In this document: positions 16,520 to 39,911 of the stretch, one piece after another
How the letters are laid out: each line of letters opens with the position of its first letter
How positions within the stretch are numbered: position 1 is the first letter of the stretch
Assembly (NCBI GenBank): GCA_965205865.1
Contig: CBDBHR010000026.1
Span: 224,997-288,996, forward strand
DNA: 64,000 bases
Reading direction: 5' to 3'
Origin: a bacterium
GTDB taxonomy: Bacteria; SAR324; NAC60-12
Notes under the pieces: generated by a model
What the model was told of the DNA's origin: nothing
Databases searched by the model: none
What the model saw: the letters and a program-made list of their open reading frames with translations, nothing else
Translations under genes and position numbers: made by a program

Positions 16520-16663
16520 CGTTTATTTCTGGATTCACTCAAGGGCAGAGACTACCCGTTGGTCTCCGGAATCAACCTGCTCTTCGCCACTGCGGTGGTG
16601 GGGATCAATCTCATCATCGACCTGATTTATGCTTTCTTGGACCCCAGGGTTCGGTATAAATAG
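16520..16663 (+). pseudogene. ABC permease (DppB-type) C-terminal fragment
   Basis: RDYPLVSGINLLF...DLIYAFLDPRVRYK. Confidence 0.8.
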
Positions 16664-16766
16664 TCGCTGGCGCGACAAAGGTATTAGGTGTTAGGTTTCA
16701 GGTATTAGCGCAAAGCTGACACCGAATACCTTATACCTAAAAGCCTTCATCCTAAATACCTAAATT

Positions 16767-17736: not shown

Positions 17737-17816
17737 GCGCACCAAAAATTGTAAAAATACTTGCTTAACTTTTTCCACAATGTTAAATCTTCATAGGTGT
17801 TCGGGATTTAAAAGGA

Positions 17817-18054
17817 TAAGTAAAGAATCCACCTTCTTAGAAGGTGATTTTGATGGGCCCCTGGAAGGGGCGGCTCGTGATCGTACTCGTGAGCCGTGCT
17901 CGTGAACGAAATGGCATCCCAGAGAATCCTGGATTCCCTGCCGTCTCTTCTATTCGGAATCTCCATCTCAAGGGAATCGGGAACGTTTCTATCGAGCACG
18001 TGCACGATTACGAACACGTGCACGTTTTTGGCAGAGCCGATTGTCTCTGACCAC
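17817..18054 (+). repeat. Dispersed element copy A carrying a small His-rich ORF (ATG 17853-18050)
   Basis: Same element at 20967-21210, 29756-29942 and 37439-37655; CTCGTG/CACGAG hexamer arms. Confidence 0.85.
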
Positions 18055-18110
18055 AACTAGGCGTCCCCGCCCAAAGGACGTGGTTTCATCAGATAAAATG
18101 AAAGGAAAAT

Positions 18111-24292: not shown

Positions 24293-25287
24293 CTGGGAGC
24301 GAAAGTCATATTTTAGACACGTTTTGAAATATCGTCAGATGGATAGGATACTGAATGGGATAATGAAATCTACCAGGATTTTGCCATCATCGTTCTTTTG
24401 TGATAGTTTTCAAGAAATCGCCTTGGGCTGACGGTTTTTAAGAATTTCGGCTTGTTTTTCGTTTTCTCTTTTGATAGATTTCAAGAAAACGCCTTTGATT
24501 GAAGGGTTTATTTCAATTTTGCTAATATTTTAGCCGAAAGTCATGTAAAACATCATATCCTCACCAGAGGATTTTTAGAAACGGTCAACGGGGAATTGAA
24601 AAGTGCCCAAATTTTACTTTTATTTTAAATAAATCGGATATTGATTAAAAAAACATATTGACTTCCTGTTCTGGATATGAGAAAATTTGCCTTAAATTGT
24701 CGCTGTAGCGAAATAGCTTTTAGCCGTCTGCTGTCAGCTGTCAGTTTTTGAATCAAATTGATATACAGTTTTTTTGTAAGTGAAAACCGATAGCTGAGAA
24801 CAGATAGCCTTTAATGCTTGACAAACATTTGCAAGATTATACAGTATTTTATTCCAGGAACAGAAGAGCAATAATGAGATCCTTCGCTTTGCTCAGGATG
24901 ACATGAAAGGCTAATATTAACCCATTTCAAGTTTAAAAGCATCTTGACAATAAGGTGGATATGAGAGTAAACTCAAACACCCAGCTCCCAGCTCCCAGTA
25001 ATAAGTTCCAAGCAACAAGTCACAAGTCCCCAATCCCAAGTTCTACCCCCTTATATTATCTCGACCTCAGGGAGAGATCCATAAGATTCCTAGTTCCCAA
25101 TCCCAAGTTCCAAGAACAGAAGGGCAATCGGGAAAATCATGGGCGTCTGAGAACGTCCTTTATTCGTTCTTTTTTATAAGGAGAACACCATGCTGAAATC
25201 AGGAAAGCGGAATTGGTCCGCCAAACAAGGAAAGCTGGTCAAGCCTGCAGATAAACTTCACGTTAACAATCATATAAGGAGGTAGTT

Positions 25288-27315
25288 ATGAAACGAGCAT
25301 TATCTTTAGCAAGCGAGGTTCCTATGTATCTTAAGAAATTTCTGGCCCGCTTCGTTGGGCTGACCGTGGCAAACGTCGTGTCTGCTGCGAAAACCCGATT
25401 CGCCCCATGTCGGGTGAATCGTTCTCAAAACCCTCAATTTAAAGAGGTTCTTATGTATTGTATTTTAAAGAAACTTGTCGCCTCCATCGCGAGGCTGAAC
25501 CCGGTAGGCTCTTTGTCTGCTGTACAAAAGCTTGTCCTCGCAAAAGCGGGGATGCCACCCTTGTTGCTCACCTTCACCCTGATGGTGGCCGCCCTCTGGG
25601 TCAGTTCGGCCGTGGCGGCTGAGAAAGAGACGGTGTTCGACCCCGCCACCGGCCAGACGTGGACTGCGCATGAGTATGGCGGGACACTCACGTTTGGCAT
25701 GAAGCGCTATCCTAAGAGTGCTGACGTGTGGTACGCTGGTGGCTGGGCGCCTGTCCTCATCAGTGGTGTTAATGAGAAGCTAGCCTTCGCCGACTGGGGA
25801 CTATCCAGGGAAAAGACCGCTGACTTTTACCACTTTGTGACCCCAGCGATGACCACAGGGTGTCTGGCGGAAAGCTGGTCGCAGCCCGACCCCACAACGT
25901 TCATCTGGCACATCCGCCAGGGCGTTTTCTGGGACAATAAGGAGCCGGTGAACGGTCGTCAGTTCGATGCTTATGACGTCGAATGGAACTATCACCGCTA
26001 TTTGGGTCTGGGTGAATTCAGCGAACTCGGAATCAGCCCCGAAGTTGAGGATATAACGAATGGTCTCTCGTACGAATCGGTAACGGCCACCGATAAATGG
26101 ACGGTTGAGGTTAAGCTGGCGAAGCCTGACGCCGATGTGCTGGGGAAAATGCTACACACCTACCTTTTTGTGTACGCCCCCGAGGTAATCGAGAAATACG
26201 GCGACGCTCAGGATTGGAGGAACGCGGTCGGCACCGGGCCCTATCGACTGACTGAGTACGTCCAGGACAGCTCGGCAACCTGGGAGAAGAATCCTAACTA
26301 CTGGAAATACGACGAAAAATGGCCGGAGAACCGCCTGCCCTATACTGACAAGTTAGTGAGCCTGGCTATGCCAGAGTCAGCGACACGTATATCGGCAATG
26401 CGCACGGGTAAGATTGATATGCTGACTGAAGCCGGCGACGCTTATATACTGAGTCCCGACTATGTAGAGAGCCTCCAGAAGAGCAACCCTGAAATCGAGT
26501 TGTGGACCATTTATTCCATTGTCATTGACATTTTCGGTTTTAACCAGTCTTCGGAGCTCATGCAGGACGTCAATGTGCGCAAGGCACTGCAGATGGCAGT
26601 GGACAACGAGGCAATCAACAATTCCTTCTTTAAGGGTTTTGGAGATACAGCACTTTATGGGACAATAAATCAAGATTCTAAAGGGTGGAACTGGCCAGTT
26701 GAAGAATGGCCGGACGAGGTCAAGCAAGAATATACCTATAATCCGAAAAGGGCCGAGGAGATCCTTGATGCGGCTGGATATCCACGCCGCGCCGACGGCT
26801 ATAGATTCAAGGTCAAGCTAGGCAGTGCGGAAAAGTTTGAAACGACCTATGCAGAAATACTCGTGTCGTACTTCGATGCCATTGGCGTTGATAGCGAGAT
26901 TGAAGTGGTTACTGCGGCCGACAAGGGAGCTGCCCGAAGGGGGCCGACGATGAAGTGGGATTTACACAATTTTGGGTATTATAGCTGGTTCGCCCCCAAC
27001 AAGGATATATATTGTTTATCAAATTGCGCAGATGGTCATTGGCCCAAAACGAAGGACCAGCGAATGCACGACATAGTTGCCGCCATGAAAGTCGCTGCCA
27101 CCATGGAGGAGTCGATGAGCTTACATCGAGAGGCCGATGAGAAAACGGTAAGGGAGCACTATGCCATAATCAAACCCCAATCCCCTAAGTTTTACGTGAG
27201 CCAGCCGTGGGTCGAGGGTTATTTCGGTGAATCAGGTATGCAACGGGCCTCACGTAATACCTTCATGGCCCGCCTCTGGATTGATAGTGCGATGAAGAAA
27301 GAAATGGGGCATTAG
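25288..27315 (+). CDS. Family 5 extracellular solute-binding protein (DppA/OppA-like), copy 1; true start uncertain (25288, 25324, 25453 or 25552)
   Basis: Signal peptide ...AVA-AE, CLAESW, GTGPY, MRTGKID, NPKRAEEILDAAGY. Confidence 0.9.
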   Translation: MKRALSLASEVPMYLKKFLARFVGLTVANVVSAAKTRFAPCRVNRSQNPQFKEVLMYCILKKLVASIARLNPVGSLSAVQKLVLAKAGMPPLLLTFTLMVAALWVSSAVAAEKETVFDPATGQTWTAHEYGGTLTFGMKRYPKSADVWYAGGWAPVLISGVNEKLAFADWGLSREKTADFYHFVTPAMTTGCLAESWSQPDPTTFIWHIRQGVFWDNKEPVNGRQFDAYDVEWNYHRYLGLGEFSELGISPEVEDITNGLSYESVTATDKWTVEVKLAKPDADVLGKMLHTYLFVYAPEVIEKYGDAQDWRNAVGTGPYRLTEYVQDSSATWEKNPNYWKYDEKWPENRLPYTDKLVSLAMPESATRISAMRTGKIDMLTEAGDAYILSPDYVESLQKSNPEIELWTIYSIVIDIFGFNQSSELMQDVNVRKALQMAVDNEAINNSFFKGFGDTALYGTINQDSKGWNWPVEEWPDEVKQEYTYNPKRAEEILDAAGYPRRADGYRFKVKLGSAEKFETTYAEILVSYFDAIGVDSEIEVVTAADKGAARRGPTMKWDLHNFGYYSWFAPNKDIYCLSNCADGHWPKTKDQRMHDIVAAMKVAATMEESMSLHREADEKTVREHYAIIKPQSPKFYVSQPWVEGYFGESGMQRASRNTFMARLWIDSAMKKEMGH

Positions 27316-27376
27316 AAGCCATGTTAAAACCTTGTTTCCCCTCCCCTGGCGGGAGGGGTAGGGGAGGGGGTTTCCC

Positions 27377-28381
27377 ATGAGAACATATTTCATCAGGCGG
27401 TTATTGCTCATGATCCCGACCCTGTTTCTCCTGAGTATCCTGGTCTTTCTCTCGGTGCGCTTCATCCCCGGCGATGTCGTCGACATCATGGTAGCTAAGA
27501 TGCACGGATGGGGGGGTGGCTATACAAACCGTGAAGTTCTTGAGCGTGTGTTGGGATTAGACGTGCCTGTGCACGTACAGTACGGACGCTGGATAGGAGT
27601 GTTGCCGACCCCTGACTGGAAGACCGGTGAGTCTCAATTCAGCGGTATCCTCCAGGGCACCCTTGGCAAATCACTGTATGCCACCCATTTGTCGATAGAG
27701 GAACAGGTATTAGAGAGATTGCCAGTAACCCTTGAGCTGGGTCTCATGGCCATCGTGATCGGGTTGGTGATCGCGCTACCGGTGGGCATCTACTCGGCGA
27801 TTCGCCAGGATACTGCCACCGACTACCTGGGGCGCTCCATCGCCATCATCGGCCTGGCCACGCCTAACTTCTGGCTGGCAATTATGGTCATCCTCTACCC
27901 GGCAATCTGGTGGGGCTGGGCGCCATCGATAAGGTATATCCCTCTTGTCGAAAACCCGCTGGGGAATCTGGTGATGTTCCTCATTCCCAGCGTGATTCTG
28001 GGGACGGCCATGGCTGCCGAGACCATGCGGATGACACGCACCATGATGCTGGAGGTCTTAAGGCAGGACTACATCCGCACCGCCTGGTCCAAAGGGCTCA
28101 AGGAGCAGGTCGTGGTGATCCGGCACGCCATCAAGAATGCCCTCATCCCGATAGTTACCCTGATCGGCCTGCGCTTGCCCCTCCTGATCGGGGGCTCCGT
28201 TATCATGGAAGAAATATTTGTTCTGCCGGGGATCGGTCGTTTATACCTGGATGCAATCGAGAGCAGAGACTACCCGGCGGTCCAGGGAATCAACCTGTTT
28301 TTCGCCACCGGGGTAGTGGGGATCAATCTCTTCATCGACCTGATTTATGCTTTCTTGGACCCCAGGGTTCAGTATAAATAG
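27377..28381 (+). CDS. Peptide/nickel ABC permease, DppB-type
   Basis: LPVTLEL, MRMTRTMMLEVLRQDYIRTAWSKGL, HAIKNAL. Confidence 0.92.
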   Translation: MRTYFIRRLLLMIPTLFLLSILVFLSVRFIPGDVVDIMVAKMHGWGGGYTNREVLERVLGLDVPVHVQYGRWIGVLPTPDWKTGESQFSGILQGTLGKSLYATHLSIEEQVLERLPVTLELGLMAIVIGLVIALPVGIYSAIRQDTATDYLGRSIAIIGLATPNFWLAIMVILYPAIWWGWAPSIRYIPLVENPLGNLVMFLIPSVILGTAMAAETMRMTRTMMLEVLRQDYIRTAWSKGLKEQVVVIRHAIKNALIPIVTLIGLRLPLLIGGSVIMEEIFVLPGIGRLYLDAIESRDYPAVQGINLFFATGVVGINLFIDLIYAFLDPRVQYK

Positions 28382-28429
28382 TCGTTTTGCTACTGGTAAA
28401 TATGGGTTTGAGATTCGTATGTAGGAAGA

Positions 28430-28686
28430 AGTCCCTGAGGGACGAAAGAAAGTAGCCCAGCGATTTATCGCTGGGTACAAATGGCTCCTTCAAAGTCCCG
28501 GAGGGACGAAACAACAATGAGGTCTCATATCCCATGAAAACATAATCTTAAATATGATGAGTGTTATATTTTGCATTAATTCGCTCGACCGAAGAAGTGT
28601 CGTCTCTCTGGGACTAGCTGAGAGGAAGGGGGTTTCCTTACCCAGCAATGAATTGCTGGGCTATACCTTTTCGTCCCTCAGGGACT
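28430..28686. repeat. REP/MITE-like element with ~48-bp imperfect inverted arms; matching copy at 36113-36369
   Basis: AGTCCCTGAGGGACGAAA...CCCAGCGATTTATCGCTGGGTA with its inverted counterpart ending GTCCCTCAGGGACT. Confidence 0.8.
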
Positions 28687-28708
28687 GTATCATAGAAAAA
28701 TCGGGATC

Positions 28709-29675
28709 ATGAACAACACCCAAGAAACACCCCGCTATCCGTGAGCCCAAGCGACGAAGCCGGTTTGCGGCTTTCTTGATCAGGTTTCTCAAGGAGAAGC
28801 CACTCGGTACTGCCTGCGGGTTTATCATCTTGATCTTGATTTTAGTGGCAATCTTTGCCGATGCGCTGGCGCCTTATTCCCATAAGGAAGCACACCTGAT
28901 AGACAGGCTGCAGACCCCATCAGCCAAGTATCTGCTGGGTACCGACCACATAGGACGAGACTTACTCAGCCGCCTGATCTACGGGGCGCGTATCTCCGTA
29001 CTTGTCGGCCTGGCCGCGACCGCAATCAATGTGGTCTTCGCTGTCCTCATCGGCGGCATTTCAGGATTCCTCGAGGGTAAAGTGGATCTGGCGGTGCAGC
29101 GCTTTGTCGATGCCTGGATTGCCTTTCCGGGACTGCTGCTCTTGCTGACCCTCGTGTCCGTCGTGGGACAGGGGTTGCTCCAGATCATCCTGGTGCTGGG
29201 GATCGCCGGTGGAGTCGAAGGCTCCCGCGTCGTGCGGGGTGCGGTGATCGCCATTAAAGAGAATGACTATTTTCTGGCAGCCCAGGCCGTGGGCACCCCG
29301 ACCAGCCAAATCCTCAACCGTCATGTGCTGCCCAATATTATGGCACCCGTCATCATTATCTTCTCCATTAACATCGGGGGGGTGATTATGACTTTGGCTG
29401 CTCTGGGCTTCCTCGGATACGGTCTGCCACCCAACATTCCTGACTGGGGAGGGATGCTCAGCCGGGAAGGGCGCCGGTACATGGAGATGGCCCCCTGGCT
29501 GGCGCTCTGGCCCGGTCTTTGCTTGACGATTGCCGTCTACGCGCTCAACATGTTCGGCGACGCCATCAGAGACTTGCTCGATCCCCGGCTGCGGGGCGGA
29601 CAAGGCAGTTACGGCATCACGGGGAAACGCAAACGCGGATTCCTCACCCGACTGATCAACCCTTTCAGATGGTAA
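28709..29675 (+). CDS. DppC-type permease; +1 C near 28730 disrupts the start region (pseudogene or read error)
   Basis: Nearly identical to 36392-37357 apart from the C-run indel. Confidence 0.8.
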
Positions 29676-29755
29676 ACGCACCAAAAATTGTAAAAATACT
29701 TGTTTAACTTTTTCTACAATGTTAAATCTTCATAGGTGTTCGGGATTTAAAAAGA

Positions 29756-29942
29756 TAAGTAAAGAATCCACCTTCTTAGAAGGTGATTTTGATGGGCCCC
29801 TGGAAGGGGCGGCTCGTGAGCCGTGCTCGTGCTCGTGAACGAAATGGCATCCCAGAGAAACCTGGATTCCCTCTCAAGAGAATCGGGAACGTTTCTATCG
29901 AGCACGTGCACGATTTTGGCAGAGCCGATTGTCTCTGACCAC
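29756..29942 (+). repeat. Dispersed His-rich-ORF element copy C, the shortest (ATG 29792-29938)
   Basis: Lacks the 12-, 27- and 18-nt blocks; frame retained. Confidence 0.85.
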
Positions 29943-29998
29943 AACTAGGCGTCCCCGCCCAAAGGACGTTGTTTCATCAGATAAAATGAAAGGAAAAT

Positions 29999-30877
29999 AT
30001 GAAGTATTACAAAATCATTTCAGCAAATGGCAGCTCCCGATTTACCGTGGAACAAGAGGAAGGCCTCCTCGCAGACCTGACTTCGGTGGATGAAAATCTG
30101 TCAGACCTGGAAGTCATTGCTCGTGCCGCATCCCTCTCCGGAGTCAGCATAGACAAGATTGCAGAACGGATCATCGAGTCCGGCAAGCCCCCAATCCTGA
30201 AAATGGAGGAGGTCTTGGATGAAAAAAGCGATATGCGACTGGCTCGTCCCTTCGACCCTCCGGAAGTGTGGGGTGCCGGCGCGACCTATAACAAAGATCT
30301 GAGCAAGGCCTCGGAAAGTTACATCAAGATCTATCAGGCAGAGCGCCCGATGCTTTTCTTCAAGGCAACGCCACAACGATGTGTCGGCCCCTTTGTGTCC
30401 GTTGGAATCCGGGAGGACAGCGCGATCAACATCCCGGAGCCTGAGCTCGCCTTTGTACTCTACCAGGGGGAGATCATTGGCTACACTGTCGCCAACGACA
30501 TGAGCGCCGTGTCCCTTGAGGGAGAAAATACGTATTACCAGCCCCAGGCCAAAGTCTATAATCAGAGCTGCGCCATCGGGCCCTGCTTCGTGACTGCTGA
30601 ATCGATCAAAACCCCTGAGGACCTGGATTTACGCTGCTCTACAAGACGTGACAACGAAGTAGTGTGGTACGGCGAGAGCTCCACTTCCCATTTGGCCCGC
30701 AGTTGCGCCCAACTGGCCGACTGGATCCAACGGTCCAACTCCATGCCCGACTTGACGACGGTGCTCACCGGATGTGATTGTCATCCCCCGTCCGGATTCA
30801 CCCTTCAGCAAGGCGACGTGATCAGCATCACGATCGAGGGAATTGGGACGCTGGAAAACCCCGTCATTGTCGTGTAG
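29999..30877 (+). CDS. FAH-family protein, copy 2
   Basis: Highly similar to 18111-18989. Confidence 0.85.
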   Translation: MKYYKIISANGSSRFTVEQEEGLLADLTSVDENLSDLEVIARAASLSGVSIDKIAERIIESGKPPILKMEEVLDEKSDMRLARPFDPPEVWGAGATYNKDLSKASESYIKIYQAERPMLFFKATPQRCVGPFVSVGIREDSAINIPEPELAFVLYQGEIIGYTVANDMSAVSLEGENTYYQPQAKVYNQSCAIGPCFVTAESIKTPEDLDLRCSTRRDNEVVWYGESSTSHLARSCAQLADWIQRSNSMPDLTTVLTGCDCHPPSGFTLQQGDVISITIEGIGTLENPVIVV

Positions 30878-31041
30878 ATGGAGCTTGTTTGAGCGGTTCA
30901 CCGTTGACCGCTATTGCCTCATGAGGAACTCTACGCTAAGAACCTGTAATAGAGGCAGGATCCGATCATTTGGGGAGGATGATATTTTCAGCCTTCTTAA
31001 CCCACGCCATCAAATCGAAGGTGGAGAAGTATGAGGACATT

Positions 31042-31887
31042 ATGATACCTTCCTATGAAGCCATTATTGCCCCCCGGCACGTGACCGTTTCGGGGATATA
31101 CAATATGCGGGACCTCGGTGGTTTACGCCGGGCGAACGGCCAGCAGACAAAGCAGCATGTTGTGTATCGTGCCGATAACCTCGGTTGGCTCAACCCTGAA
31201 GGGGTGAGCGCGTTGGAGGATTTGGGGATCCGGACCGTCATCGATTTACGGTCCGACTCAGAGGTGACGAGTACACCCAACCCTTTTCGCTCTCACAGCA
31301 GCATCTGCTATCTCCATATTGACTTTCTCAGCACCCTGATTGACTTTCTCAGCACCCTGCGGAATGAACCGTCGTCGGGTGAAGGGGAGTGGTATCAGTC
31401 CAAAAGTCCGGACGGGTTACTGGAGTTGCCGGTCTATCTCAATGTGCGTAAATATTGGAAATGGCTCGTCGAGTGCCAAGTACAGCTCAGAGCAGTCATC
31501 GAGGCGCTCAGTGCCGTCAACGCAACCCCTGCTGTCTTTCACTGTCTCGCCGGCAAGGACAGAACCGGTGTGGTTGCCGCCCTGTTACAATCTCTGTCCG
31601 GCGTTGACGATGCCGTCATTGCGGCAGATTATACGCACACTGCGCGCAATAACACTGCTGGACTCTTGAGCGTACACGGTCCGGAAGGCCTCCAGGATCC
31701 AACGATCATTCAGTCCCCGATCAAAGACTACCTCGATTATCAACGGCAGTTCTGCCCGGCCGAGACGATGCTCCTGCTGCTCTTTATGATCCAAGTCCAC
31801 TACGGCACCACCGAGGCGTATCTGCGTCACATCGGCATCAACGCGGCGACAATGGACCGGCTGATGAAACTGCTGGTGGGATCATGA
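31042..31887 (+). CDS. Protein tyrosine/serine phosphatase-like protein (IphP/LipA type)
   Basis: NMRDLGG, VYRAD, TVIDLRS, FHCLAGKDRTG P-loop. Confidence 0.88.
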   Translation: MIPSYEAIIAPRHVTVSGIYNMRDLGGLRRANGQQTKQHVVYRADNLGWLNPEGVSALEDLGIRTVIDLRSDSEVTSTPNPFRSHSSICYLHIDFLSTLIDFLSTLRNEPSSGEGEWYQSKSPDGLLELPVYLNVRKYWKWLVECQVQLRAVIEALSAVNATPAVFHCLAGKDRTGVVAALLQSLSGVDDAVIAADYTHTARNNTAGLLSVHGPEGLQDPTIIQSPIKDYLDYQRQFCPAETMLLLLFMIQVHYGTTEAYLRHIGINAATMDRLMKLLVGS

Positions 31888-31938
31888 ATATTCTTGAGAA
31901 AGGTCCTAAAAAACATTTTTATAAGGAGACATCTATCA

Positions 31939-32227
31939 ATGACCATTATGTCGATCAGCCGGCTCATCTCCCAACGGGCAATAGAAGATCCCGACCGGCC
32001 TTGTATCACGCACGAAGGCAAAACGGTGACCCGTCAGGAGTTTGATCGCCACACCAATCGGCTGGCTCGTGCTTACCAACAAAAGGGAGTCCAGCACAAT
32101 GATTTTGTCACCGTGGCCTTGCCCAATTCGATTGAATTTTATCAAGCCTGTGTCGCCATTTGGAAGCTGGGCGCCACCCCTCAACCCGTTTCCGCAAAGT
32201 TACCCCAAAGGGAATTAGCAGCCATTA
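31939..32227 (+). pseudogene. Acyl-CoA ligase N-terminal fragment
   Basis: NRLARAY...VTVALPNSIEF...WKLGATPQPV, then abruptly truncated. Confidence 0.8.
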
Positions 32228-32326
32228 GGGGCGAGAGAAAAAGGACAGAAAATTTTCTTCCCCACTTTGTCTAGTTTTTTACAATAGGGTTGAGAAACCA
32301 TTTGATTTTCTAATGGAGAAAAAGGG

Positions 32327-32432
32327 GTGGAGTAGCAGACACGCATCGCCCCTTTAGACCCGGCATAACCGTTAGTTCGCCCTCTTCAAACTGTGCGTAC
32401 AGTTGACGGTTCGGCTCCCGACGTACACGGCT
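32327..32432 (-). mobile_element. Group II intron 3'-end remnant (domains V and VI)
   Basis: Minus strand AGCCGTGTACG...GTACGCACAGTTTGAAGAGGG...CTACTCCAC. Confidence 0.75.
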
Positions 32433-32438
32433 TTAATG

Positions 32439-32634
32439 ACTCGACTTTGAACATTTTATTCAACTTTTGGGTTTAATAAAATCAATGTCTTACGAATCTT
32501 TATTGGAATTAATACAGGTCGTATCATCAAAAATGGAAAACAGTAACCTGTATTAATTTTTTACAAATTTTCAACCAATTGATATTATTGAATAATGAAA
32601 ATTAAAAGAATAAATCGAATGTCCAAAGTCCAGT
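32439..32634. mobile_element. Putative MITE, 196 bp, with IS701-like TIRs
   Basis: ACTCGACTTTGAACATT / AATGTCCAAAGTCCAGT, flanked by AATG on both sides. Confidence 0.6.
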
Positions 32635-32660
32635 AATGAATGAGTCGCCCTATTTAAAAA

Positions 32661-32727
32661 AAGTTTGACAATCATTTGCAAAGCGAGTATAAAAAAGTTT
32701 GACAATCAATTGCAAGGCGAGTATACA
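32661..32727 (+). promoter_or_regulatory. Two tandem sigma70-type promoters (34-bp duplication)
   Basis: TTGACA(32665)-N17-TATAAA and TTGACA(32699)-N17-TATACA. Confidence 0.75.
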
Positions 32728-32951
32728 GTATTGTTCCAGGAACGGAAGGGCAATAATGAGACCCTTCGCATTGCCGCTTTCGGTACACCTGTTTGGGCAA
32801 ATCGTCAGGATGAAATGAAAGTCTGAAATTAACCCGTTTCGAGTATAAAAAATCTTGATAATGAGGTGGATATGAGAGTAAGCTTAAACTCTAAGTGTAC
32901 AGGTTCATTGGGTTCTACCCCCTTACGTCATCTCGACCTCAAGGAGTTATT

Positions 32952-34946
32952 ATGATAGCGAAGAATCTATTCGCCCCCTTTGTGGGCCTGACCGTGGCAA
33001 ACGTCGTGTCTGCTGCGAAAACCCGATTCGCCCCATGTCGGGTGAATCGTTCTCAAAACCCTCAATTTAGAGAGGTTCTTATGTATTGTATTATAAAGAA
33101 ATTTGTCGCCTCCATCGCGAGGCTGAACCCGGCAGGCTCTTTGTCTGCTGTACAAAAGCTTGTCCTCGCAAAAGCGGGGATGCAACCCTTGTTGCTCACC
33201 TTCACCCTGATGGTGGCCGCCCTCTGGGTCAGCCCGGCAGCCGTGGCGGCTGAGAAAGAGACGGTGTTCGACCCCGCCACCGGCCAGACGTGGACTGCCC
33301 ATGAGTATGGCGGGACACTCACCTTTGGCACGAAGCGCTATCCTAAGAGTGCTGACGTGTGGTACGCTGGGGGCTGGGCGCCTCACTTCATCAGTGGTGT
33401 TAATGAGAAGCTAGCCTTCGCCGACTGGGGACTATCCAGGGATAAGACCGCTGACTTTTACATCGTTGTGAGCCCAGAGATGACCACAGGGTGTCTGGCG
33501 GAAAGCTGGTCGCAGCCCGACCCCACAACCTTCATCTGGCACATCCGCCAGGGCGTTTTCTGGGACAATAAGGAGCCGGTGAACGGTCGTCAGTTCGATG
33601 CTTATGACGTCGAATGGAACTATCACCGCTATTTGGGTCTGGGTGATTTCAGCGAACTCGGAATCAGCCCCGAAGTTGAGGATATAACTAATGGTCTCTC
33701 GTACGAATCGGTAACGGCCACCGATAAATGGACGGTTGTGGTTAAGCTGGCGAGGCCTGACGCCGATGTGTTAGGGAAAATGCTCCACACCTACACTTTT
33801 ATGTACGCCCCCGAGGTAATCGAGAAATACGGCGATGCTCAGGATTGGAGGAACGCGGTCGGCACCGGGCCCTATCGACTGACTGATCACGTCCAGGACA
33901 GCTCGGCAACCTGGGAGAAGAATCCTGACTACTGGAAATACGACGAAAAATGGCCGGAGAACCGCCTGCCCTATATTGACAAGTTGGTGAGCCTGGCTAT
34001 GCCAGAGTCAGCGACACGTACATCGGCAATGCGCACGGGTAAGATTGATATGCTGACTGAAACCGGCGACGCTTATATATTGAATCCCGACTATATGGAT
34101 GCCCTCCAGCGCACCAACCCTGAAATCGATGTGTTTCCCATTTATGTCGGGGTCTCGGACATTTACGGTTTTAACCAGTCTTCGGAGCTCATGCAGGACG
34201 TCAATGTGCGCAAGGCACTGCAGATGTCAGTGGACATCGAGACCATTAACACTTCCTTCTATAAGGGTTATGGAGATACAGCACCTTATGGGTTAATAAG
34301 TCAAGCTTCAAAAGGGTGGAACTGGCCATATGAAGACTGGCCCGAAGAGGTCAAGCAAGAATATACCTATAATCCGGAAAGGGCCGAGGAACTCCTTGAT
34401 GCGGCTGGGTATCCACGCGGCGCCGATGGCTATAGATTCAAGGTCAAGCTAGCCAGTTCGGAAAGGGTTGAAACGACCTATGGAGAAATACTCATGTCGT
34501 ACTTCGATGCCATTGGCGTCGATAGCGAGATTGAAGTGGTTACTGAGGCCGAGGCGGGAGCTGCCGCAAGGGGGCCGACGATGAAGTGGGATATACACAA
34601 TTTGGTGGGGTATAGCATGTTCGCCCCCTCCAAGGATATATATTGTTTATCAAATTGCGCAGATGGTCATTGGCCCAAAACGCAGGACCAGCGAATGCAC
34701 GACATAGTTGCCGCCATGAAAGTCGCTGCCACCATGGAGGAGTGGATGAGCTTACATCGAGAGGCCGATGAGAAAACGGTAAGGGAGCACTACGCCATAA
34801 TCAAACCCAAATCCCCTAAGTTTTACGTGAGCCAGCCGTGGGTCGAGGGTTATTTCGGTGAATCAGGTATGCAACGGGCCTCACGTAATACCTTCATGGC
34901 CCGCCTCTGGATTGATAGTGCGCTGAAGAAAGAAATGGGGCATTAG
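32952..34946 (+). CDS. Family 5 solute-binding protein, copy 2 (start uncertain)
   Basis: Close paralogue of 25288-27315. Confidence 0.9.
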   Translation: MIAKNLFAPFVGLTVANVVSAAKTRFAPCRVNRSQNPQFREVLMYCIIKKFVASIARLNPAGSLSAVQKLVLAKAGMQPLLLTFTLMVAALWVSPAAVAAEKETVFDPATGQTWTAHEYGGTLTFGTKRYPKSADVWYAGGWAPHFISGVNEKLAFADWGLSRDKTADFYIVVSPEMTTGCLAESWSQPDPTTFIWHIRQGVFWDNKEPVNGRQFDAYDVEWNYHRYLGLGDFSELGISPEVEDITNGLSYESVTATDKWTVVVKLARPDADVLGKMLHTYTFMYAPEVIEKYGDAQDWRNAVGTGPYRLTDHVQDSSATWEKNPDYWKYDEKWPENRLPYIDKLVSLAMPESATRTSAMRTGKIDMLTETGDAYILNPDYMDALQRTNPEIDVFPIYVGVSDIYGFNQSSELMQDVNVRKALQMSVDIETINTSFYKGYGDTAPYGLISQASKGWNWPYEDWPEEVKQEYTYNPERAEELLDAAGYPRGADGYRFKVKLASSERVETTYGEILMSYFDAIGVDSEIEVVTEAEAGAAARGPTMKWDIHNLVGYSMFAPSKDIYCLSNCADGHWPKTQDQRMHDIVAAMKVAATMEEWMSLHREADEKTVREHYAIIKPKSPKFYVSQPWVEGYFGESGMQRASRNTFMARLWIDSALKKEMGH

Positions 34947-35058
34947 TACTTATAGGACAAGTCTCCATTTGAAAAAGGGGATTCAGGGGGATTTTAAAAG
35001 CTTTGCCAACGAAATCCCCCTGCCCCCCTTTTCTTAAGTGGGGAAGGAGAAGGATTCC

Positions 35059-36064
35059 ATGAGAACCTATTTCATCAGGCGGTTGTTGCTCATGATCCCG
35101 ACCCTGTTTCTCCTGAGTATCCTGGTCTTTCTCTCGGTGCGCTTCATCCCCGGCGATGTCGTCGACATCATGGTAGCTAAGATGCACGGATGGGGGGGGT
35201 GGCTATACAAACCGTGAAGCTCTTGAGCGTGTGCTGGGGTTAGACGTGCCTGTGCACGTACAGTACGGACGCTGGATAGGAGTGTTGCCGACCCCTGACT
35301 GGAAGACCGGTAAGTCTCAATTCAGCGGTATCCTCCAGGGCACCCTTGGCAAATCACTGTATGCCACCCATTTGTCGATAGAGGAACAGGTATTAGAGAG
35401 ATTGCCAGTAACCCTTGAGTTGGGTCTCATGGCCATCGTGATCGGGTTGGTGATCGCGCTACCGGTGGGCATCTACTCGGCGATTCGCCAGGATACTGCC
35501 ACCGACTACCTGGGGCGCTCCATCGCCATCATCGGCCTGGCCACGCCTAACTTCTGGCTGGCAATTATGGTCATCCTCTACCCGGCAATCTGGTGGGGCT
35601 GGGCGCCATCGATAAAGTATATCCCTCTTGTCGAAGACCCGCTGGGGAATCTGGTGATGTTCCTCATTCCCAGCGTAATTCTGGGGACGGCCATGGCTGC
35701 CGAGACCATGCGGATGACACGCACCATGATGCTGGAGGTCTTAAGGCAGGACTACATCCGCACCGCCTGGTCCAAAGGGCTCAAGGAGCAGGTCGTGGTG
35801 ATCCGGCACGCCATCAAGAATGCCCTCATCCCGATAGTTACCCTGATCGGCCTGCGCTTGCCCCTCCTGATCGGGGGCTCCGTTATCATGGAAGAAATAT
35901 TTGTTCTGCCGGGGATCGGTCGTTTATACCTGGATGCAATCGAGAGCAGAGACTACCCGGCGGTCCAGGGAATCAACCTGTTTTTCGCCACCGGGGTAGT
36001 GGGGATCAATCTCTTCATCGACCTGATTTATGCTTTCTTGGACCCCAGGGTTCAGTATAAATAG
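35059..36064 (+). CDS. DppB-type permease copy with +1 G in a G run near 35195 (pseudogene or read error)
   Basis: Almost identical to 27377-28381; ATG at 35059. Confidence 0.8.
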
Positions 36065-36391
36065 TCGTTTTGCTACTGGTAAATATGGGTTTGAGATTCG
36101 TATGTAGGAAGAAGTCCCTGAGGGACGAAAGAAAGTAGCCCAGCGATTTATCGCTGGGTACAAATGGCTCCTTCAAAGTCCCGGAGGGACGAAACAACAA
36201 TGAGGTCTCATATCCCATGAAAACATAATCTTAAATATGATGAGTGTTATATTTTGCATTAATTCGCTCGACCGAAGAAGTGTCGTCTCTCTGGGACTAG
36301 CTGAGAGGAAGGGGGTTTCCTTACCCAGCAATGAATTGCTGGGCTATACCTTTTCGTCCCTCAGGGACTGTATCATAGAAAAATCGGGATC

Positions 36392-37357
36392 ATGAACAAC
36401 ACCCAAGAAACACCCGCTATCCGTGAGCCCAAGCGACGAAGCCGGTTTGCGGCTTTCTTGATCAGGTTTCTCAAGGAGAAGCCACTCGGTACTGCCTGCG
36501 GGTTTATCATCTTGATCTTGATTTTAGTGGCAATCTTTGCCGATGCGCTGGCGCCTTATTCCCATAAGGAAGCACACCTGATAGACAGGCTGCAGACCCC
36601 ATCAGCCAAGTATCTGCTGGGTACCGACCACATAGGACGAGACTTACTCAGCCGCCTGATCTACGGGGCGCGTATCTCCGTACTTGTCGGCCTGGCCGCG
36701 ACCGCAATCAATGTGGTCTTCGCTGTCCTCATCGGCGGCATTTCAGGATTCCTCGAGGGTAAAGTGGACCTGGCGGTGCAGCGCTTTGTCGATGCCTGGA
36801 TCGCCTTTCCGGGACTGCTGTTGTTGTTGACCCTCGTGTCCGTCGTGGGACAGGGGTTGCTCCAGATCATCCTGGTGCTGGGGATCGCCGGTGGAGTCGA
36901 AGGCTCCCGCGTCGTGCGGGGTGCGGTGATCGCCATTAAAGAGAATGACTATTTTCTGGCAGCCCAGGCCGTGGGCACCCCGACCAGCCAAATCCTCAAC
37001 CGTCATGTGCTGCCCAATATTATGGCACCCGTCATCATTATCTTCTCCATTAACATCGGGGGGGTGATTATGACTTTGGCTGCTCTGGGCTTCCTCGGCT
37101 ACGGTCTGCCACCCAACATTCCTGACTGGGGAGGGATGCTCAGCCGGGAAGGGCGCCGGTACATGGAGATGGCCCCCTGGCTGGCGCTCTGGCCCGGTCT
37201 TTGCTTGACGATTGCCGTCTACGCGCTCAACATGTTCGGCGACGCCATCAGAGACCTGCTCGATCCCCGGCTGCGGGGCGGACAAGGCAGTTACGGCATC
37301 ACGGGGAAACGCAAACGCGGATTCCTCGCCCGACTGATCAACCCTTTCAGATGGTAA
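36392..37357 (+). CDS. DppC-type permease
   Basis: LLGTDHIGRD, FPGLLLLL, RHVLPN, NMFGDAIRDLLDP. Confidence 0.92.
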   Translation: MNNTQETPAIREPKRRSRFAAFLIRFLKEKPLGTACGFIILILILVAIFADALAPYSHKEAHLIDRLQTPSAKYLLGTDHIGRDLLSRLIYGARISVLVGLAATAINVVFAVLIGGISGFLEGKVDLAVQRFVDAWIAFPGLLLLLTLVSVVGQGLLQIILVLGIAGGVEGSRVVRGAVIAIKENDYFLAAQAVGTPTSQILNRHVLPNIMAPVIIIFSINIGGVIMTLAALGFLGYGLPPNIPDWGGMLSREGRRYMEMAPWLALWPGLCLTIAVYALNMFGDAIRDLLDPRLRGGQGSYGITGKRKRGFLARLINPFRW

Positions 37358-37438
37358 GCGCACTAAAAAATTGTAAAAACACTTGCTTAAATTTTTCCAC
37401 AATGCTAAATCTTCATAGGTGTTCGGGATTTAAAAAGA

Positions 37439-37655
37439 TAAGTAAAGAATCCACCTTCTTAGAAGGTGATTTTGATGGGCCCCTGGAAGGGGCGGCTCGT
37501 GATCGTACTCGTAAGCCGTGCTCGTGCTCGTGAACGAAATGGCATCCCAGAGAAACCTGGATTCCCTCTCAAGAGAATCGGGAACGTTTCTATCGAGCAC
37601 GTGCACGATTACGAACACGTGCACGTTTTTGGCAGAGCCGATTGTCTCTGACCAC
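37439..37655 (+). repeat. Dispersed His-rich-ORF element copy D (ATG 37475-37651)
   Basis: Lacks only the 27-nt block. Confidence 0.85.
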
Positions 37656-37711
37656 AACTAGGCGTCCCCGCCCAAAGGACGTTGTTTCATCAGATAAAAT
37701 GAAAGGAAAAT

Positions 37712-38591
37712 ATGAAGTATTACAAAATCATTTCAGCAAATGGCAGCTCCCGATTTACCGTGGAACAAGAGGAAGGCCTCCTCGCAGACCTGACTTCGGT
37801 GGATGAAAATCTGTCAGACCTGGAAGTCATTGCTCGTGCCGCATCCCTCTCCGGAGTCAGCATAGACCAGATTGCAGAACGGATCATCGAGTCCGGCCAG
37901 CCCCAAATCCTGAAAATGGAGGAGGTCTTGGATGAAAAAAGCGATATGCGACTGGCTCGTCCCTTCGACCCTCCGGAAGTGTGGGGTGCCGGCGCGACCT
38001 ATAACAAAGACCTGAGCAAGGCCTCGGAAAGTTACATCAAGATCTATCAGGCAGAGCGCCCGATGCTTTTCTTCAAGGCAACGCCACAACGATGTGTCGG
38101 CCCCTTTGTGTCCGTTGGAATCCGGGAGGACAGCGCGATCAACATCCCGGAGCCTGAGCTCGCCTTTGTGCTCTACCAGGGGGAGATCATTGGCTACACT
38201 GTCGCCAACGACATGAGCGCCGTGTCCCTTGAGGGAGAAAATACGTATTACCAGCCCCAGGCCAAAGTCTATAATCAGAGCTGCGCCATCGGGCCCTGCT
38301 TCGTGACTGCGGAATCGATCAAAACCCCTGAGGACCTGGATTTACGCTGCTCTACAAGACGTGACAACGAAGTAGTGTGGCACGGCGAGAGCTCCACTTC
38401 CCATTTGGCCCGCAGTTGCGCCCAACTGGCCGACTGGATCCAACGGTCCAACTCCATGCCCGACTTGACCGACGGTGCTCACCGGATGTGATTGTCATCC
38501 CCCGTCCGGATTCACCCTTCAGCAAGGCGATGTGATCAGCATCACGATCGAGGGAATCGGGACGCTGGAAAACACCGTCATTGTCGTGTAG
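37712..38591 (+). pseudogene. FAH-family protein copy 3, +1 frameshift near 38469
   Basis: Matches copy 2 and resumes in the shifted frame to VIVV*. Confidence 0.8.
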
Positions 38592-39170: not shown

Positions 39171-39430
39171 TGACCGGGTTTGACGAGTACTACGAGAAGG
39201 CGCTGGCGGCTACCACGAGAGAGGAGCAGCAGGAGTGGGTGCGGAAGGCCGACCTGCGCGTCATCGAGCAGCTCTGGATGATCAGGGGGCCAGTAGCTCC
39301 GCTGATGGGTTTCACCCAGCCGTGGCTCAAGGGCTACAACGGGGAAGGCGATCTCGGCGCGATGCAACGTATCACTTTCTTGCAGTACCTGTGGGTGGAC
39401 CAGGACCTGAAACGGCAGATGGGCCACTGA
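39170..39430 (+). pseudogene. Solute-binding protein C-terminal fragment
   Basis: QPWLKGYNGE...LWVDQDLKRQMGH. Confidence 0.8.
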
Positions 39431-39543
39431 GATGAATCCTCCTGTGGGCTGCGCGACGCGGCCCACCGGACAGGCTACTATGACCTCCCGGTTCTCGCGC
39501 CTTCCGGCGCCGCGGGCCGGGAGGTTTCTCCGACGGAGATAAG

Positions 39544-39911
39544 ATGAGATCGTACGTCATCCGGAGGGTCCTGCTGCTGATCCCGACCTTTTTCCTGGTC
39601 ACCATCCTGGTGTTTCTCTAGGTGCGCTTCATACCGGGCGATGCCATCGACATCCTCCTGTTCAGAATGGTTGAATCGTCGGGTGGCGGCAGCGGCATCG
39701 ACCGCGCGGAGCTCGAGCGACGCTTGGCGCCGCGGCTGGCAATGTGGCCCGGGGTCTGCCTGACGGTGGTGGTTTTTTGTTTCAACATGTTCGGCGATGC
39801 CATGCGCGACCTGTTCGATCCCTGCCTGCGCGGTGGCCAGGGCAGTTACGGCACTGCGGTGGTGAAACGCAAACGCGGCTTCCTCTCCAGACTGCTCAAC
39901 CCCTTCTCTTA
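39544..39911 (+). pseudogene. DppB N-terminus fused to DppC C-terminus by internal deletion
   Basis: MRSYVIRRVLLL..(TAG)..DRAELERR joined to LAPRLAMWPG...NPFS. Confidence 0.75.

Follow-up and report, generated by a model that had tools for sequence, protein, structure and literature searches.

Known related systems

Several bacterial importers are known in which more than one solute-binding protein (SBP) shares one translocator: HisJ and LAO with HisQMP, OppA and MppA with OppBCDF, and the OppA paralogues of Borrelia. Concerted evolution of bacterial paralogues by gene conversion is known from the tuf genes and the rRNA operons. The locus described here resembles the shared-translocator systems in that each intact permease pair is accompanied by two or three diverged SBP genes, the sharing being read from gene content. 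It differs in that the extra SBP stems from copying of a whole cassette, and in that the surplus permeases are in mid-decay and are at times repaired or overwritten by gene conversion. As with tuf and rRNA genes, paralogues of one genome resemble each other more than orthologues of different genomes do and the tract boundaries are sharp, but conversion here halts at both edges of a segment that appears to be under divergent selection. The result is a mosaic: the leader is homogenised, as are the permeases and hydrolase, and the SBP core between them is diverged.

The proteins belong with the Dpp/Opp/Nik importers (e.g. E. coli DppABCDF; cluster C, family-5 SBPs). The SBP fold is the same, and there are likewise two six-helix permeases with OppC_N and BPD_transp_1_N extensions. 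Permease B has an IPGD motif and, at the site of the DppB scoop motif (PMC12136057), a loop close to TM1. Unlike DppABCDF, the cassette is without ATPase genes, and a fumarylacetoacetate-hydrolase (FAH)-family gene travels with it. The SBP is ~60 residues longer, and R355 and D408 of DppA, which bind the dipeptide termini (PMC12136057), are both Ser here. None of the cassette proteins matches an NCBIfam equivalog at cut-off.

In the Pasteurellaceae, GbpA, DppA and HbpA2 are paralogous family-5 SBPs in which a few pocket mutations switched ligand preference (PMC3295651). The present pair is similar in that the fold is kept and replacements are concentrated, here by alignment, at positions of ligand contact that lie mainly in the C-lobe. 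The pair here is young (dS ~0.07), with a selection signal still readable in the DNA, whereas the paralogues of the Pasteurellaceae are old and have known ligands.

The explanation that we consider probable is that a cassette was duplicated, its SBPs diverged adaptively, its permeases are being converted or are decaying, and one translocator is shared. The system is of an ordinary kind, here well documented; the locus would be a clear example of a known route by which bacteria widen their nutrient range.

The duplicated cassette

The window (the whole 64-kb stretch of DNA analysed) was assembled from a metagenome. Its host bacterium is associated with sponges, and the closest named relatives belong to the SAR324 cluster. 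Blastn and MAFFT alignments display two direct repeats, copy A (25345-30902) and copy B (32973-38616), with an offset of 7.63-7.71 kb, in agreement with the modules of ~5.6 kb offset by ~7.7 kb in the preliminary description. Each copy has genes for a family-5 SBP, two Dpp/Opp-type permeases (B and C) and an FAH-family protein. The SBP part of the repeat shows 93.7% identity (117 mismatches in 1976 nt) and the remainder 98.0% over 3561 nt. A profile search found neither DppD nor DppF in either module, the fourth gene being of the FAA_hydrolase family, and ATPase genes are absent from the cassette and from the entire 64-kb window. The main features are as follows.

24818..25551, plus strand: upstream leader of copy A, with two sigma-70-like sites (24818-24845, 24944-24973); the repeat begins within it (25345-25551)
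25552..27315, plus strand: SBP_A, A-type family-5 (cluster C) SBP with signal peptide (PF00496, E=2e-61)
27377..28381, plus strand: permease B of copy A, DppB/OppB-like, intact (PF00528, PF19300)
28709..29675, plus strand: permease C of copy A, DppC/OppC-like, frameshifted at codon 8-11 (C4 run at 28730-28733, C3 elsewhere)
29999..30877, plus strand: FAH-family hydrolase of copy A, intact, 292 aa (PF01557, E=1e-20)
30903..32972, plus strand: single-copy DNA between the repeats (Y_phosphatase3 gene, acyl-CoA synthetase N-terminus fragment and copy B leader)
30970-31887, plus strand: Y_phosphatase3 gene, between the repeats
31894-32274, plus strand: acyl-CoA synthetase N-terminus fragment, between the repeats
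33180..34946, plus strand: SBP_B, B-type SBP, 88% aa identity to SBP_A
35059..36064, plus strand: permease B of copy B, frameshifted by a G8 run (35192-35199)
36392..37357, plus strand: permease C of copy B, intact, 321 aa (PF00528, PF12911)
37712..38591, plus strand: FAH-family hydrolase of copy B, frameshifted at codon 253 (extra C at 38469/38470)

The single-copy region between the repeats has a word depth of ~20-26 in runs X1 and X3. The copy A hydrolase gives only sub-threshold NCBIfam matches, of the HpaG type and to didehydro-deoxy-rhamnonate hydrolase.

The SBP open reading frames as listed (675 and 683 aa) extend ~88 codons too far upstream. Translation probably begins at ATG 25552 and ATG 33180, and in both proteins a signal peptide follows that ends AVAA/EKE; mature SBP_A begins at 25618 (AEKETVF). 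The AF2 model of SBP_A has a pLDDT of 91.5, and its best Foldseek matches are DppA, GbpA, AppA and AccA (prob 1.0, TM 0.65-0.73). An orthologue of SBP_A, P0001, displays 96% identity, and the DNA stretch that encodes P0002 in three other assemblies (L001, L002 and L003) is 99.5% identical to copy B of the window. Sponge metatranscriptome contigs, which can contain DNA, include type-specific SBP stretches from each of the two copies.

Divergence of the solute-binding proteins

SBP_A and SBP_B differ at 69 of 565 mature residues. All five patches quoted in the preliminary description are present in the sequences, and the differences are locally dense, as it had claimed, and not evenly spread (permutation p<=0.002). 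One stretch of 15 residues holds nine of them, 25 pairs are near-adjacent and the bin variance is high; 9, 6 and 1 of 5000 permutations, respectively, reached such values. Residues 271-470 (the C-lobe) hold 47 of the 69 (68%).

Anchor residues were mapped by an alignment at ~20% identity (DppA R355/GbpA A380, D408/GbpA D432, and GbpA S430). DppA R355 aligns with S403, which has differences on both sides (402, 404, 406 and 407), and D408 with S456, which has them at 452, 453, 454 and 457. The equivalents of GbpA A380, S430 and D432 lie within or beside the A/B patches 402-404 and 454-456. The earlier term "cleft-lining" may apply, by alignment, to two patches beside the R355 and D408 homologues, in keeping with the concentration in the C-lobe. 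The A/B replacements may alter the ligand pocket, and if so the two SBPs would bind different solutes.

Between the A and B SBPs, dS is 0.068 and dN 0.068, an overall dN/dS of ~1.0. In the C-lobe dN/dS is 1.5-1.9, an excess over 1 that is not significant when taken alone (Fisher p=0.18); across strains inside each type it is 0.1-0.38 (0.28-0.38 for type A, ~0.2 for type B). The case for selection rests on the McDonald-Kreitman contrast. There are 79 nonsynonymous and 14 synonymous fixed changes, against 32 and 31 polymorphic ones (p=5e-6), with the polymorphisms drawn from few assemblies, two of them of another lineage; with one species only, the counts are 86/17 fixed and 11/12 polymorphic (p=7e-4). 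Of 113 sites with fixed A/B differences, 105 are in the SBP. Codons 291-330 alone contain 23 nonsynonymous and 3 synonymous changes. When polarised with a further SBP type, C, nonsynonymous and synonymous changes number 45 and 6 on the A lineage and 21 and 13 on the B lineage, although dS joins A with B and dN joins B with C, and C is thus perhaps not a true outgroup. The wider family favours the B state at 44 of the 69 differing positions.

The diversifying selection proposed earlier is supported by the McDonald-Kreitman result and by the C-lobe dN/dS as against that within types. SBP divergence by adaptive amino-acid change appears to have occurred while the rest of the cassette stayed alike. 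After the duplication, replacements far outpaced silent changes, chiefly in the C-terminal lobe and on the A lineage; since then purifying selection has held each type across strains and in a second, more distant lineage.

A dN/dS near 1 could also signify loss of function, with type A merely drifting under relaxed constraint. The overall ratio agrees with this, other genes of the cassette are decaying, and residues near-invariant in the family are replaced in type A (H46V, G391R, L382I, R406K). It is nevertheless unlikely: the A type is intact in five genomes of two lineages with the low within-type ratios given above, fixed replacements are in excess over polymorphic ones, and the replacements are clustered rather than even. 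In two genomes, L004 and L005, the A-type SBP has been retained despite loss of its own permeases.

Origin of the SBP patches

The preliminary description had offered patchwise recombination as another source of the patches, that is, pasting of segments from more distant paralogues to give mosaic genes rather than selected point substitutions. Donors could be found among the many paralogous cassettes and fragments in the window and in relatives, gene conversion is demonstrably active at the locus, and the differences are clustered. Silent divergence, however, is even along the SBP (0.06-0.10) and does not rise in the patches: dS in the patch-rich residues 271-470 is 0.075-0.098, equal to that of the N-lobe (0.06-0.10), whereas import from paralogues of <=60% identity would saturate it. 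The patches thus do not appear to be imported. The changes within them are almost all nonsynonymous, as in codons 291-330, and beyond types A, B and C the next relatives reach only 62% identity, with the A motifs in none. We consider this origin quite unlikely and selected point substitution the better reading.

Gene conversion between the copies

Outside the SBP the copies are nearly identical in protein sequence: 4 of 289 comparable residues differ in permease B and 2 of 299 in permease C, close to the "about 3" and "about 1" first reported. Permease dN is 0.002-0.010 and dN/dS 0.1-0.25, and the permease and hydrolase genes have remained under purifying selection. In addition, one long tract of copy B has A-type sequence.

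35537..38560, plus strand: A-to-B conversion tract, copy B with A-type sequence (site tracks, pattern 0000111, dS)

The tract extends from the 3′ part of permease B through the spacer and permease C to the following spacer and most of the hydrolase; its left boundary is between 35221 and 35857. Copy B of the window groups with all A copies at 85 sites (pattern 0000111) and agrees with the A consensus at almost every informative site from ~27854-28174 to 30735 (copy A coordinates). Non-coding sequence between permease C and the hydrolase contributes 63 sites with the A state. Positions 27994-28730 form a run of 735 nt without any A/B difference, a length reached in 0 of 5000 permutations. For the hydrolase, dS is 0.018 between the two window copies, compared with 0.074 and 0.081 between each copy and its own orthologue. 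The two window copies are thus more alike than either is to its orthologue in another genome.

The least converted strain is L002, where A-B dS is 0.073 in the SBP, 0.056 in permease B, 0.049 in permease C and 0.068 in the hydrolase. As these values are about equal in the four genes, the cassette was copied once, as a whole unit. The two window copies have 12 common states that are absent from the L001-L003 copies, eight of which are also absent from the third copy (Z); the two L001 copies have 19 pair-shared sites of the same kind. The same spacer element is in both window copies, and in only one copy in L002. The copy A leader at 25371-25604 is B-type relative to the A copies of other strains, and is therefore taken as a second, B-to-A tract.

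On these sequence comparisons, the near-identity of the window permeases is partly due to strain-specific gene conversion. Conversion overwrites parts of the cassette in individual genomes; in the window, the A-to-B tract of ~3 kb and the B-to-A leader tract of ~0.3 kb bracket the diverged SBP core, which may have been spared through selection or through its lower identity. Of the "homogenised permease chassis" in the preliminary description, conversion is real in this genome, but the chassis is mostly just purifying selection, as the permease dS in L002 (0.049-0.056) is near that of the SBP (0.073). Consensus errors, in an assembly made from long reads at low coverage over a 98% repeat, might in principle exaggerate the conversion signal.

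The permeases might instead be alike through slow evolution after a recent duplication, with no conversion. Their very low dN everywhere and low dN/dS are in keeping with this, as is the greater conservation of the wider permease B family (~75%) than of the SBPs (~55-60%). It is very improbable, given that silent divergence between the window copies (0.018-0.026) is two to four times below that in L002 (0.049-0.068) and also below that between orthologues (0.04-0.08), and given the 63 A-state sites in the spacer and the 735-nt run.

The tandem duplication in other assemblies

The tandem duplication is genuine and older than the strains. The same A and B tandem is present in three other independent metagenome assemblies from different samples (L001, L002 and L003), and the duplication is thus not an assembly artefact, a point on which the preliminary description had asked for caution. 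A false duplication, or alleles of two strains set in tandem, is nearly refuted: the metagenomic origin of the window, the 94-100% identity of the repeats and two frameshifts confined to this window would suit it, but the tandem order, the single-copy phosphatase spacer and the A- and B-type SBPs all recur in the three assemblies, the two types are found in separate contexts in L004 and L005, and 105 A/B differences are fixed across genomes.

Decay of permease genes

The G7 run at 27510-27516 in permease B of copy A encodes a GWGGG loop and is G7 in every A copy. In copy B the corresponding run is G8 in 4 of 4 copies (window, L001, L002 and L003); 47 N-terminal codons are followed by a stop, and the open reading frame left is 35231-36064. 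The run sits in the TM1-to-alpha3 "scoop" region known from DppB (PMC12136057). The preliminary description did not mention the frameshifts. In permease C of copy A, the open reading frame left is 28776-29675. The extra C is found in this window only, so this may be a homopolymer error or a strain-specific lesion. The extra C of the copy B hydrolase is absent from all other copies and from the contigs of four runs aligned there. The window-only frameshifts, which are of homopolymer type, may be long-read consensus errors.

Two wrecks of related cassettes lie near the repeats.

16514..18989, plus strand: wreck of a third close copy (permease B tail, permease C, hydrolase)
39209..39906, plus strand: wreck of another paralogous cassette (last 73 SBP codons; permease B/C fusion)

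In the third copy, permease C (16767-17733, 95% nt identity) has two frameshifts and the hydrolase (18111-18989, 95%) is intact. The fusion in 39209..39906 joins the first 59 codons of permease B to the last 62 codons of permease C. L004 and L005 have an intact A-type SBP with a permease B-C deletion after it and a complete C-type cassette adjoining.

One permease copy is broken in every strain, and the chassis is thus read as shared and decaying, not duplicated and maintained. The duplicated permeases are redundant and decay: the permease B frameshift of copy B is common to all four strains, and in the related lineage deletion has removed the permeases of the A-type SBP. From gene content, it is most likely that the two SBPs feed one translocator. 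This would be formed by the intact permease copies, in the window permease B of copy A and permease C of copy B, and would be powered by ATPases encoded elsewhere.

Spacers and RNA elements

28382..28708, unstranded: permease B-permease C spacer of copy A, long hairpin with an inverted pair of Acido-Lenti-1 motifs
29769..29785 (copy A) and 37452-37468 (copy B), unstranded: terminator-like two-way hairpin between permease C and hydrolase
34947..35058, unstranded: SBP-permease B spacer of copy B, with a 51-nt insertion and 25 substitutions found in this window's B copy only

The permease B-permease C spacer had been described as a REP identical in both copies. The identity is confirmed (28382-28710 and 36065-36393, 100%), but an enterobacterial REP is rejected, as the matches are to Rfam RF01687 (Acido-Lenti-1), at 28430-28475 (minus strand, 50.5 bits) and 28641-28686 (plus strand, 45.8 bits). 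The hairpin has an MFE of -140 kcal/mol (z=-9.8). Three length forms of this spacer are present across strains: 329, about 500 and about 104 nt. For the SBP-permease B spacer of copy B, an exact 120-nt contig over 34967-35086 is present in the sponge metatranscriptome run X13.

Layout and reality of the tandem repeat

A segmental duplication had been noticed in the preliminary description and the observation stands: two direct repeats are present, with an offset of 7628–7714 nt.

Tandem repeats and the genes in each
25345–30902, copy A
32973–38616, copy B
gene 1, family-5 solute-binding protein (SBP), PF00496
gene 2, permease B, DppB/OppB-like, Pfam domains PF00528 and PF19300
gene 3, permease C, DppC/OppC-like, Pfam domains PF00528 and PF12911
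gene 4, fumarylacetoacetate-hydrolase (FAH)-family protein

The fourth gene is of the FAH family and is not DppD; a two-way hairpin precedes it. The SBP open reading frames as listed are about 88 codons too long at the 5′ side; the likely starts, 25552 and 33180, both precede a signal peptide. A Y_phosphatase3 gene and an acyl-CoA synthetase stub lie between the repeats. Copies A and B display 93.7% identity in the SBP segment and 98.0% in everything downstream of it. Positions 27994–28730 include 735 nt without any A/B difference, a length reached in 0 of 5000 permutations.

The nearest public protein to the SBP of copy A (SBP_A) is P0001, an A-type sequence (96%). That of SBP_B is P0002, a B-type sequence whose DNA is 99.5% identical to copy B. 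P0002 is found on three contigs from three different samples (assemblies L001–L003), each with the tandem in the order A, phosphatase, B, which answers the earlier concern over an assembly artefact. Features specific to the window could conceivably stem from misassembly or mis-polishing. The SBP-to-permease B spacer of copy B (34947–35058) differs from that of every other A/B copy by a 51-nt insertion and 25 substitutions, but this variant exists in nature, since a sponge metatranscriptome contig (run X13) has an exact 120-nt match to it. A megablast search of the PLSDB plasmids with the module as query gave no match, and a look-up of permease B of copy A found no exact-sequence record.

Divergence of the SBP genes

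Over 588 aligned codons, signal peptide included, the A–B comparison gives dS 0.068 and dN 0.068; over the 565 codons of the mature protein the values are 0.065 and 0.069. There are 113 sites that separate all A from all B copies, and 105 of these are in the SBP. The five amino acid patches first pointed out by eye are all found (5/5). The 69 amino acid differences are clustered (permutation p ≤ 0.002), with 47 at residues 271–470, 18 at 1–270 and 4 at 471–565.

The McDonald–Kreitman test on the SBP, which draws on few genomes per SBP type, counts 79 nonsynonymous and 14 synonymous fixed differences, and 32 and 31 polymorphic sites of the two kinds (p = 5e-6); restricted to one species (three or four genomes), it gives 86/17 against 11/12 (p = 7e-4). 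Residues 271–470, in the C-lobe, have a dN/dS of 1.5–1.9, compared with 0.1–0.38 within an SBP type across genomes. The proposal of SBP diversification by selection is supported by these results.

Patchwise recombination had been offered as another source of the patches. However, dS is flat along the SBP gene (0.06–0.10) and drops only in the last 95 codons, and this evenness shows that the patches did not come in from distant paralogues. In a diversity-generating retroelement target, variable-region differences are limited to template adenines, and a template repeat and a matching reverse transcriptase are close by. Such a target is ruled out because substitutions at adenine are not in excess (A>G 13, A>C 12, T>G 11, G>T 11, G>C 10, etc.) and the sole reverse transcriptase in the window (61724–63151) lies after a group II intron RNA match (RF02005, 61333–61555) and belongs to that intron.

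When selective divergence of the SBP is polarised with type C, a third SBP type found in relatives, the A lineage displays 45 nonsynonymous and 6 synonymous changes and the B lineage 21 and 13. The A lineage carries most of the change. The wider family sides with the B state at 44 of the 69 differing positions, and type A has substituted several residues that hardly vary across the family (H46V, L382I, G391R, R406K).

Fold and ligand pocket

SBP_A matches the SBP_bac_5 profile PF00496 with 208.3 bits (cut-off 32.4), and all relatives carry a precomputed PF00496 match. The SBP scores below the DppA equivalog NF043070 (76.4 bits vs a cut-off of 1005). The SBPs and permeases are of family 5 and of Dpp/Opp type, and they fall in no named equivalog. 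The AF2 model of the SBP (pLDDT 91.5, pTM 0.88) displays the two-lobe, three-domain DppA/OppA fold, with Foldseek matches to 6ofq, 5f1q, 1dpp, 3m8u and 1xoc (E = 1e-33 to 1e-39). An export signal, MPPLLLTFTLMVAALWVSSAVAA|EKE, is recognised by eye: its hydrophobic core leads into an AxA site.

The SBP differences were placed on DppA and GbpA by profile alignment, not on coordinates. In E. coli DppA, Arg355 binds the carboxyl terminus of the dipeptide and Asp408 the amino terminus (PMC12136057); these are R383 and D436 of the precursor. R355 aligns with S403 and D408 with S456 in both SBP_A and SBP_B. Unlike DppA, the two SBPs therefore have Ser at both peptide-end sites, and the lack of the Arg/Asp pair would speak against a classical peptide ligand. 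S403 and S456 are within divergent patches (402/404/406/407 and 452/453/454/457/461). The contact residues of GbpA include A380, S430 and D432, and its C-lobe supplies 13 of the 18 ligand contacts (PMC3295651); the three residues map at or beside SBP positions 402–404, 454 and 456. The C-lobe has 68% of the A/B differences. The evidence supports, short of proof, a location of the A/B differences in the pocket. Pocket-driven ligand switches between family-5 paralogues are on record (PMC3295651).

Gene conversion in the permease and hydrolase genes

In L002, A–B dS is 0.073, 0.056, 0.049 and 0.068 for the SBP, permease B, permease C and hydrolase genes. As the values are about equal in all four genes, the whole unit was duplicated once. 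The window values are 0.019 for permease B, 0.026 for permease C and 0.018 for the hydrolase, and each window copy is nearer to its paralogue than to its orthologue (hydrolase dS 0.018 vs 0.074 and 0.081). Site tracks show that copy B of the window turns from B-type to A-type between 27538 and 27854–28174 (A coordinates) and stays A-type until about 30735; 63 of its A-state sites are in the non-coding spacer 5′ of the hydrolase gene. Copy A of the window is B-type at 25371–25604, i.e. the leader and signal-peptide region. L001 has a smaller conversion tract of its own around the spacer.

The closer paralogues, the site tracks and the pattern of the spacer element (described below) indicate that gene conversion is active. 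In this genome conversion has homogenised both flanks and spared the SBP core. The suggestion of a homogenised permease chassis holds for the window in this form, but in L002 the likeness of the permeases is simply due to purifying selection, which is strong (permease dN/dS 0.1–0.16). A third close copy, the wreck at 16514–18989, was considered as donor of the states common to both window copies and was rejected.

The permease B–C spacer

The spacer between the permease genes had been described as a seemingly identical intergenic REP. An element is indeed present in both window copies; it consists of an inverted pair of Rfam Acido-Lenti-1 (RF01687) hairpin motifs of 46 nt each. REP and BIME elements are short imperfect palindromes of about 35–40 nt with very many intergenic copies per genome.

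RF01687 motifs in a MITE-like hairpin (about 257 nt)
28430–28475 and 28641–28686, copy A
36113–36158 and 36324–36369, copy B
5636–5892 of L002

The spacer folds as one long hairpin (−140 kcal/mol, z = −9.8). Within 188 kb of sequence examined, the motif is found solely in this spacer, in both window copies and in only one copy (A) of L002. At the same position L001 has a different sequence of about 500 nt, and copy B of L002 and of L003 has about 104 nt. This site is a hot spot for small insertions.

Frameshifts and the G-run of permease B

In copy B, permease B contains G8 at 35192–35199 where copy A has G7, and the frame is lost after codon 47. This lesion is real and old, since G8 is present in all four known B copies (4/4) and in no A copy. 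Two other frameshifts are found in the window only: C4 at 28730–28733 in permease C of copy A, where every other copy has C3, and an extra C at 38469/70 in the hydrolase gene of copy B, which is missing from contigs of four sequencing runs. Both may be strain-specific mutations or residual homopolymer errors. As the sequence stands, the window pair has just one intact gene for each permease: B in copy A and C in copy B.

The G-run corresponds to codons 44–48 (GWGGG) of permease B, directly after TM1 and the IPGD motif. The equivalent position in DppB is occupied by the scoop loop, which enters the SBP cleft and touches DppA R383 and D436 (PMC12136057). This location is suggestive. In a speculative reading that we consider rather unlikely, the G-run would be a mutational switch by which single translocator copies go on and off. 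In phase-variable genes a coding homopolymer tract changes length within a population and thereby shifts the frame. Across four assemblies the tract length is constant for each copy (G7 or G8), and no length variation within a population was seen, at very low power: Logan contigs break at the tract and only one spans it (run X5, G7). Only 17 Hi-C raw reads match the stretch, and the bins that surround the G-tract (35127–35309) have a depth of zero.

ATPases and the proposed sharing of a translocator

Importer operons of the Dpp/Opp type have a BPD_transp_1 permease pair with family-specific N-terminal domains, as do the cassettes here; they also have one or two ATPase genes (DppD/DppF), which the cassettes lack. 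ABC_tran is absent from 30 window open reading frames submitted to Pfam, which cover most of the 64 kb (28 of the 48 of at least 150 aa, plus those of 126 aa at 31894 and 104 aa at 40384); most of the remaining ones lie over identified genes in a different frame or on the other strand. The flanks of L001–L004 likewise contain no gene called as an ABC ATPase. In the window and the flanks of L001–L005, no ABC ATPase gene adjoins any cassette, intact or broken. The cassette family appears to rely on ATPases encoded elsewhere.

Assemblies L004 and L005 (the latter a complete MAG chromosome, OZ242383.1) are of a related lineage and have a type C SBP in a complete cassette. An intact A-type SBP adjoins this cassette and its own permeases are deleted. 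We propose that two SBPs with different pockets, in other combinations in relatives, would feed one translocator, because every strain has a broken permease B in copy B, because the A-type SBP of L004 and L005 has no permeases of its own, and because the window pair retains a single intact gene for each permease, B in copy A and C in copy B. Several SBPs per translocator and the concerted evolution of paralogues are both textbook phenomena.

Other cassettes and the host

Besides the pair, the window contains fragments and pseudogenes of at least six more family-5 cassettes. These wrecks are found at 16514–18989, 21324–22286, 39209–39906, 48809–49405, 55394–55501 and 58194–58983. A deletion that joins the start of permease B to the last part of permease C occurs in two independent cases (window 39544–39906; L004 11884–12522), which suggests recombination between these two homologous genes.

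Intact distant cassette
44060–48099 (44306–48096), SBP 38% and permeases 62% identical to copy A

The G+C content of this cassette is 58%–62%, compared with about 48% for the window and 42%–45% for intergenic DNA.

The family is very large: over 1981 SBPs match at E ≤ 1e-30, and over 7900 permease B proteins, of about 75% identity, at E ≤ 1e-60. In sponge runs, positions 35122–35153 (end of TM1, IPGD) and 35266–35290 (QYGRW) of permease B, and likewise those of copy A, have a word depth of 10,000–21,000, compared with 20–26 for single-copy sequence. Hundreds of short unitigs carry these 30–40-nt stretches, so their nucleotide sequence is conserved throughout a very large paralogue family of the holobiont. 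About 100 near-identical copies, as a 100-fold excess depth over permease B might imply, are rejected, the excess being 40–60-nt unitigs over these two ultra-conserved motifs; it is uninformative on duplication because the motifs are common to the family of more than 7900 permeases.

Runs containing the region are sponge-associated and include sponge metatranscriptomes, in which stretches specific to each of the two SBP types are found. Among named relatives, those closest to the window serine hydroxymethyltransferase (SHMT, 1250–2578) are SAR324-cluster MAGs (76%–77%). The SHMT of OZ242383.1 has 85% protein identity to that of the window and its A-type SBP gene 98.6% DNA identity (dS 0.028), in a different genomic context. 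This suggests that the cassette is much younger than the carrier genomes and that it has undergone lateral exchange between symbiont lineages.

Significance of the SBP pair

This one locus shows three processes: the SBP has diverged adaptively, its partner genes have evolved in concert, and redundant partners have been lost. The comparison strains allow these to be separated. What is new is the instance, a young pair in which all three are still legible; it is neither a new principle nor a new kind of system, since SBP sharing, concerted evolution and pocket-driven switches are already known. The pair, or the trio A, B and C, with about 70 differing positions, is material from which sponge symbiont uptake can be learned, and a route to the specificity-setting residues in an uncharacterised branch of family 5. 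A literature search on SBP expansion in sponge symbionts found nothing specific.

A broader scheme is speculative and we consider it rather unlikely. The pair would be one step of a larger process in which sponge symbionts have very large family-5 repertoires without ATPases: a cassette is copied, the SBP pocket is rapidly remodelled, surplus permeases are stripped so that many SBPs are served by few shared translocators and ATPases, and cassettes cross symbiont lineages.

Mobile DNA and other sequences in the window

Matches to the group II intron D1–D4 model (RF02005, 139–159 bits)
14047–14269, + strand
14750–15002, + strand
61333–61555, + strand, followed by a 475-aa reverse-transcriptase open reading frame

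The first two are probably decayed introns, as 14.0–16.5 kb has no long open reading frame and is directly 5′ of a cassette wreck.

Mobile and addiction genes are found amid the cassettes (8778–10160, 11092–11703, 19776–20813, 41496–43068, 49727–50629 and 40384–40698). They include a DDE_Tnp_1_4 transposase and a fragment, an ISNCY transposase, a split DDE_5 transposase, a PD-(D/E)XK transposase-family gene and a PemK/MazF toxin gene; toxin–antitoxin genes are present in the window. Intergenic two-copy tandem repeats are at 24005–24288, 42770–43055 and 43618–43934, with units of 142, 183 and 191 nt that are 92%–100% identical.

An open reading frame of 813 aa (52248–54689) matches CoA-transferase family III in three stretches (E = 1e-141) and is apparently two such domains fused in tandem.
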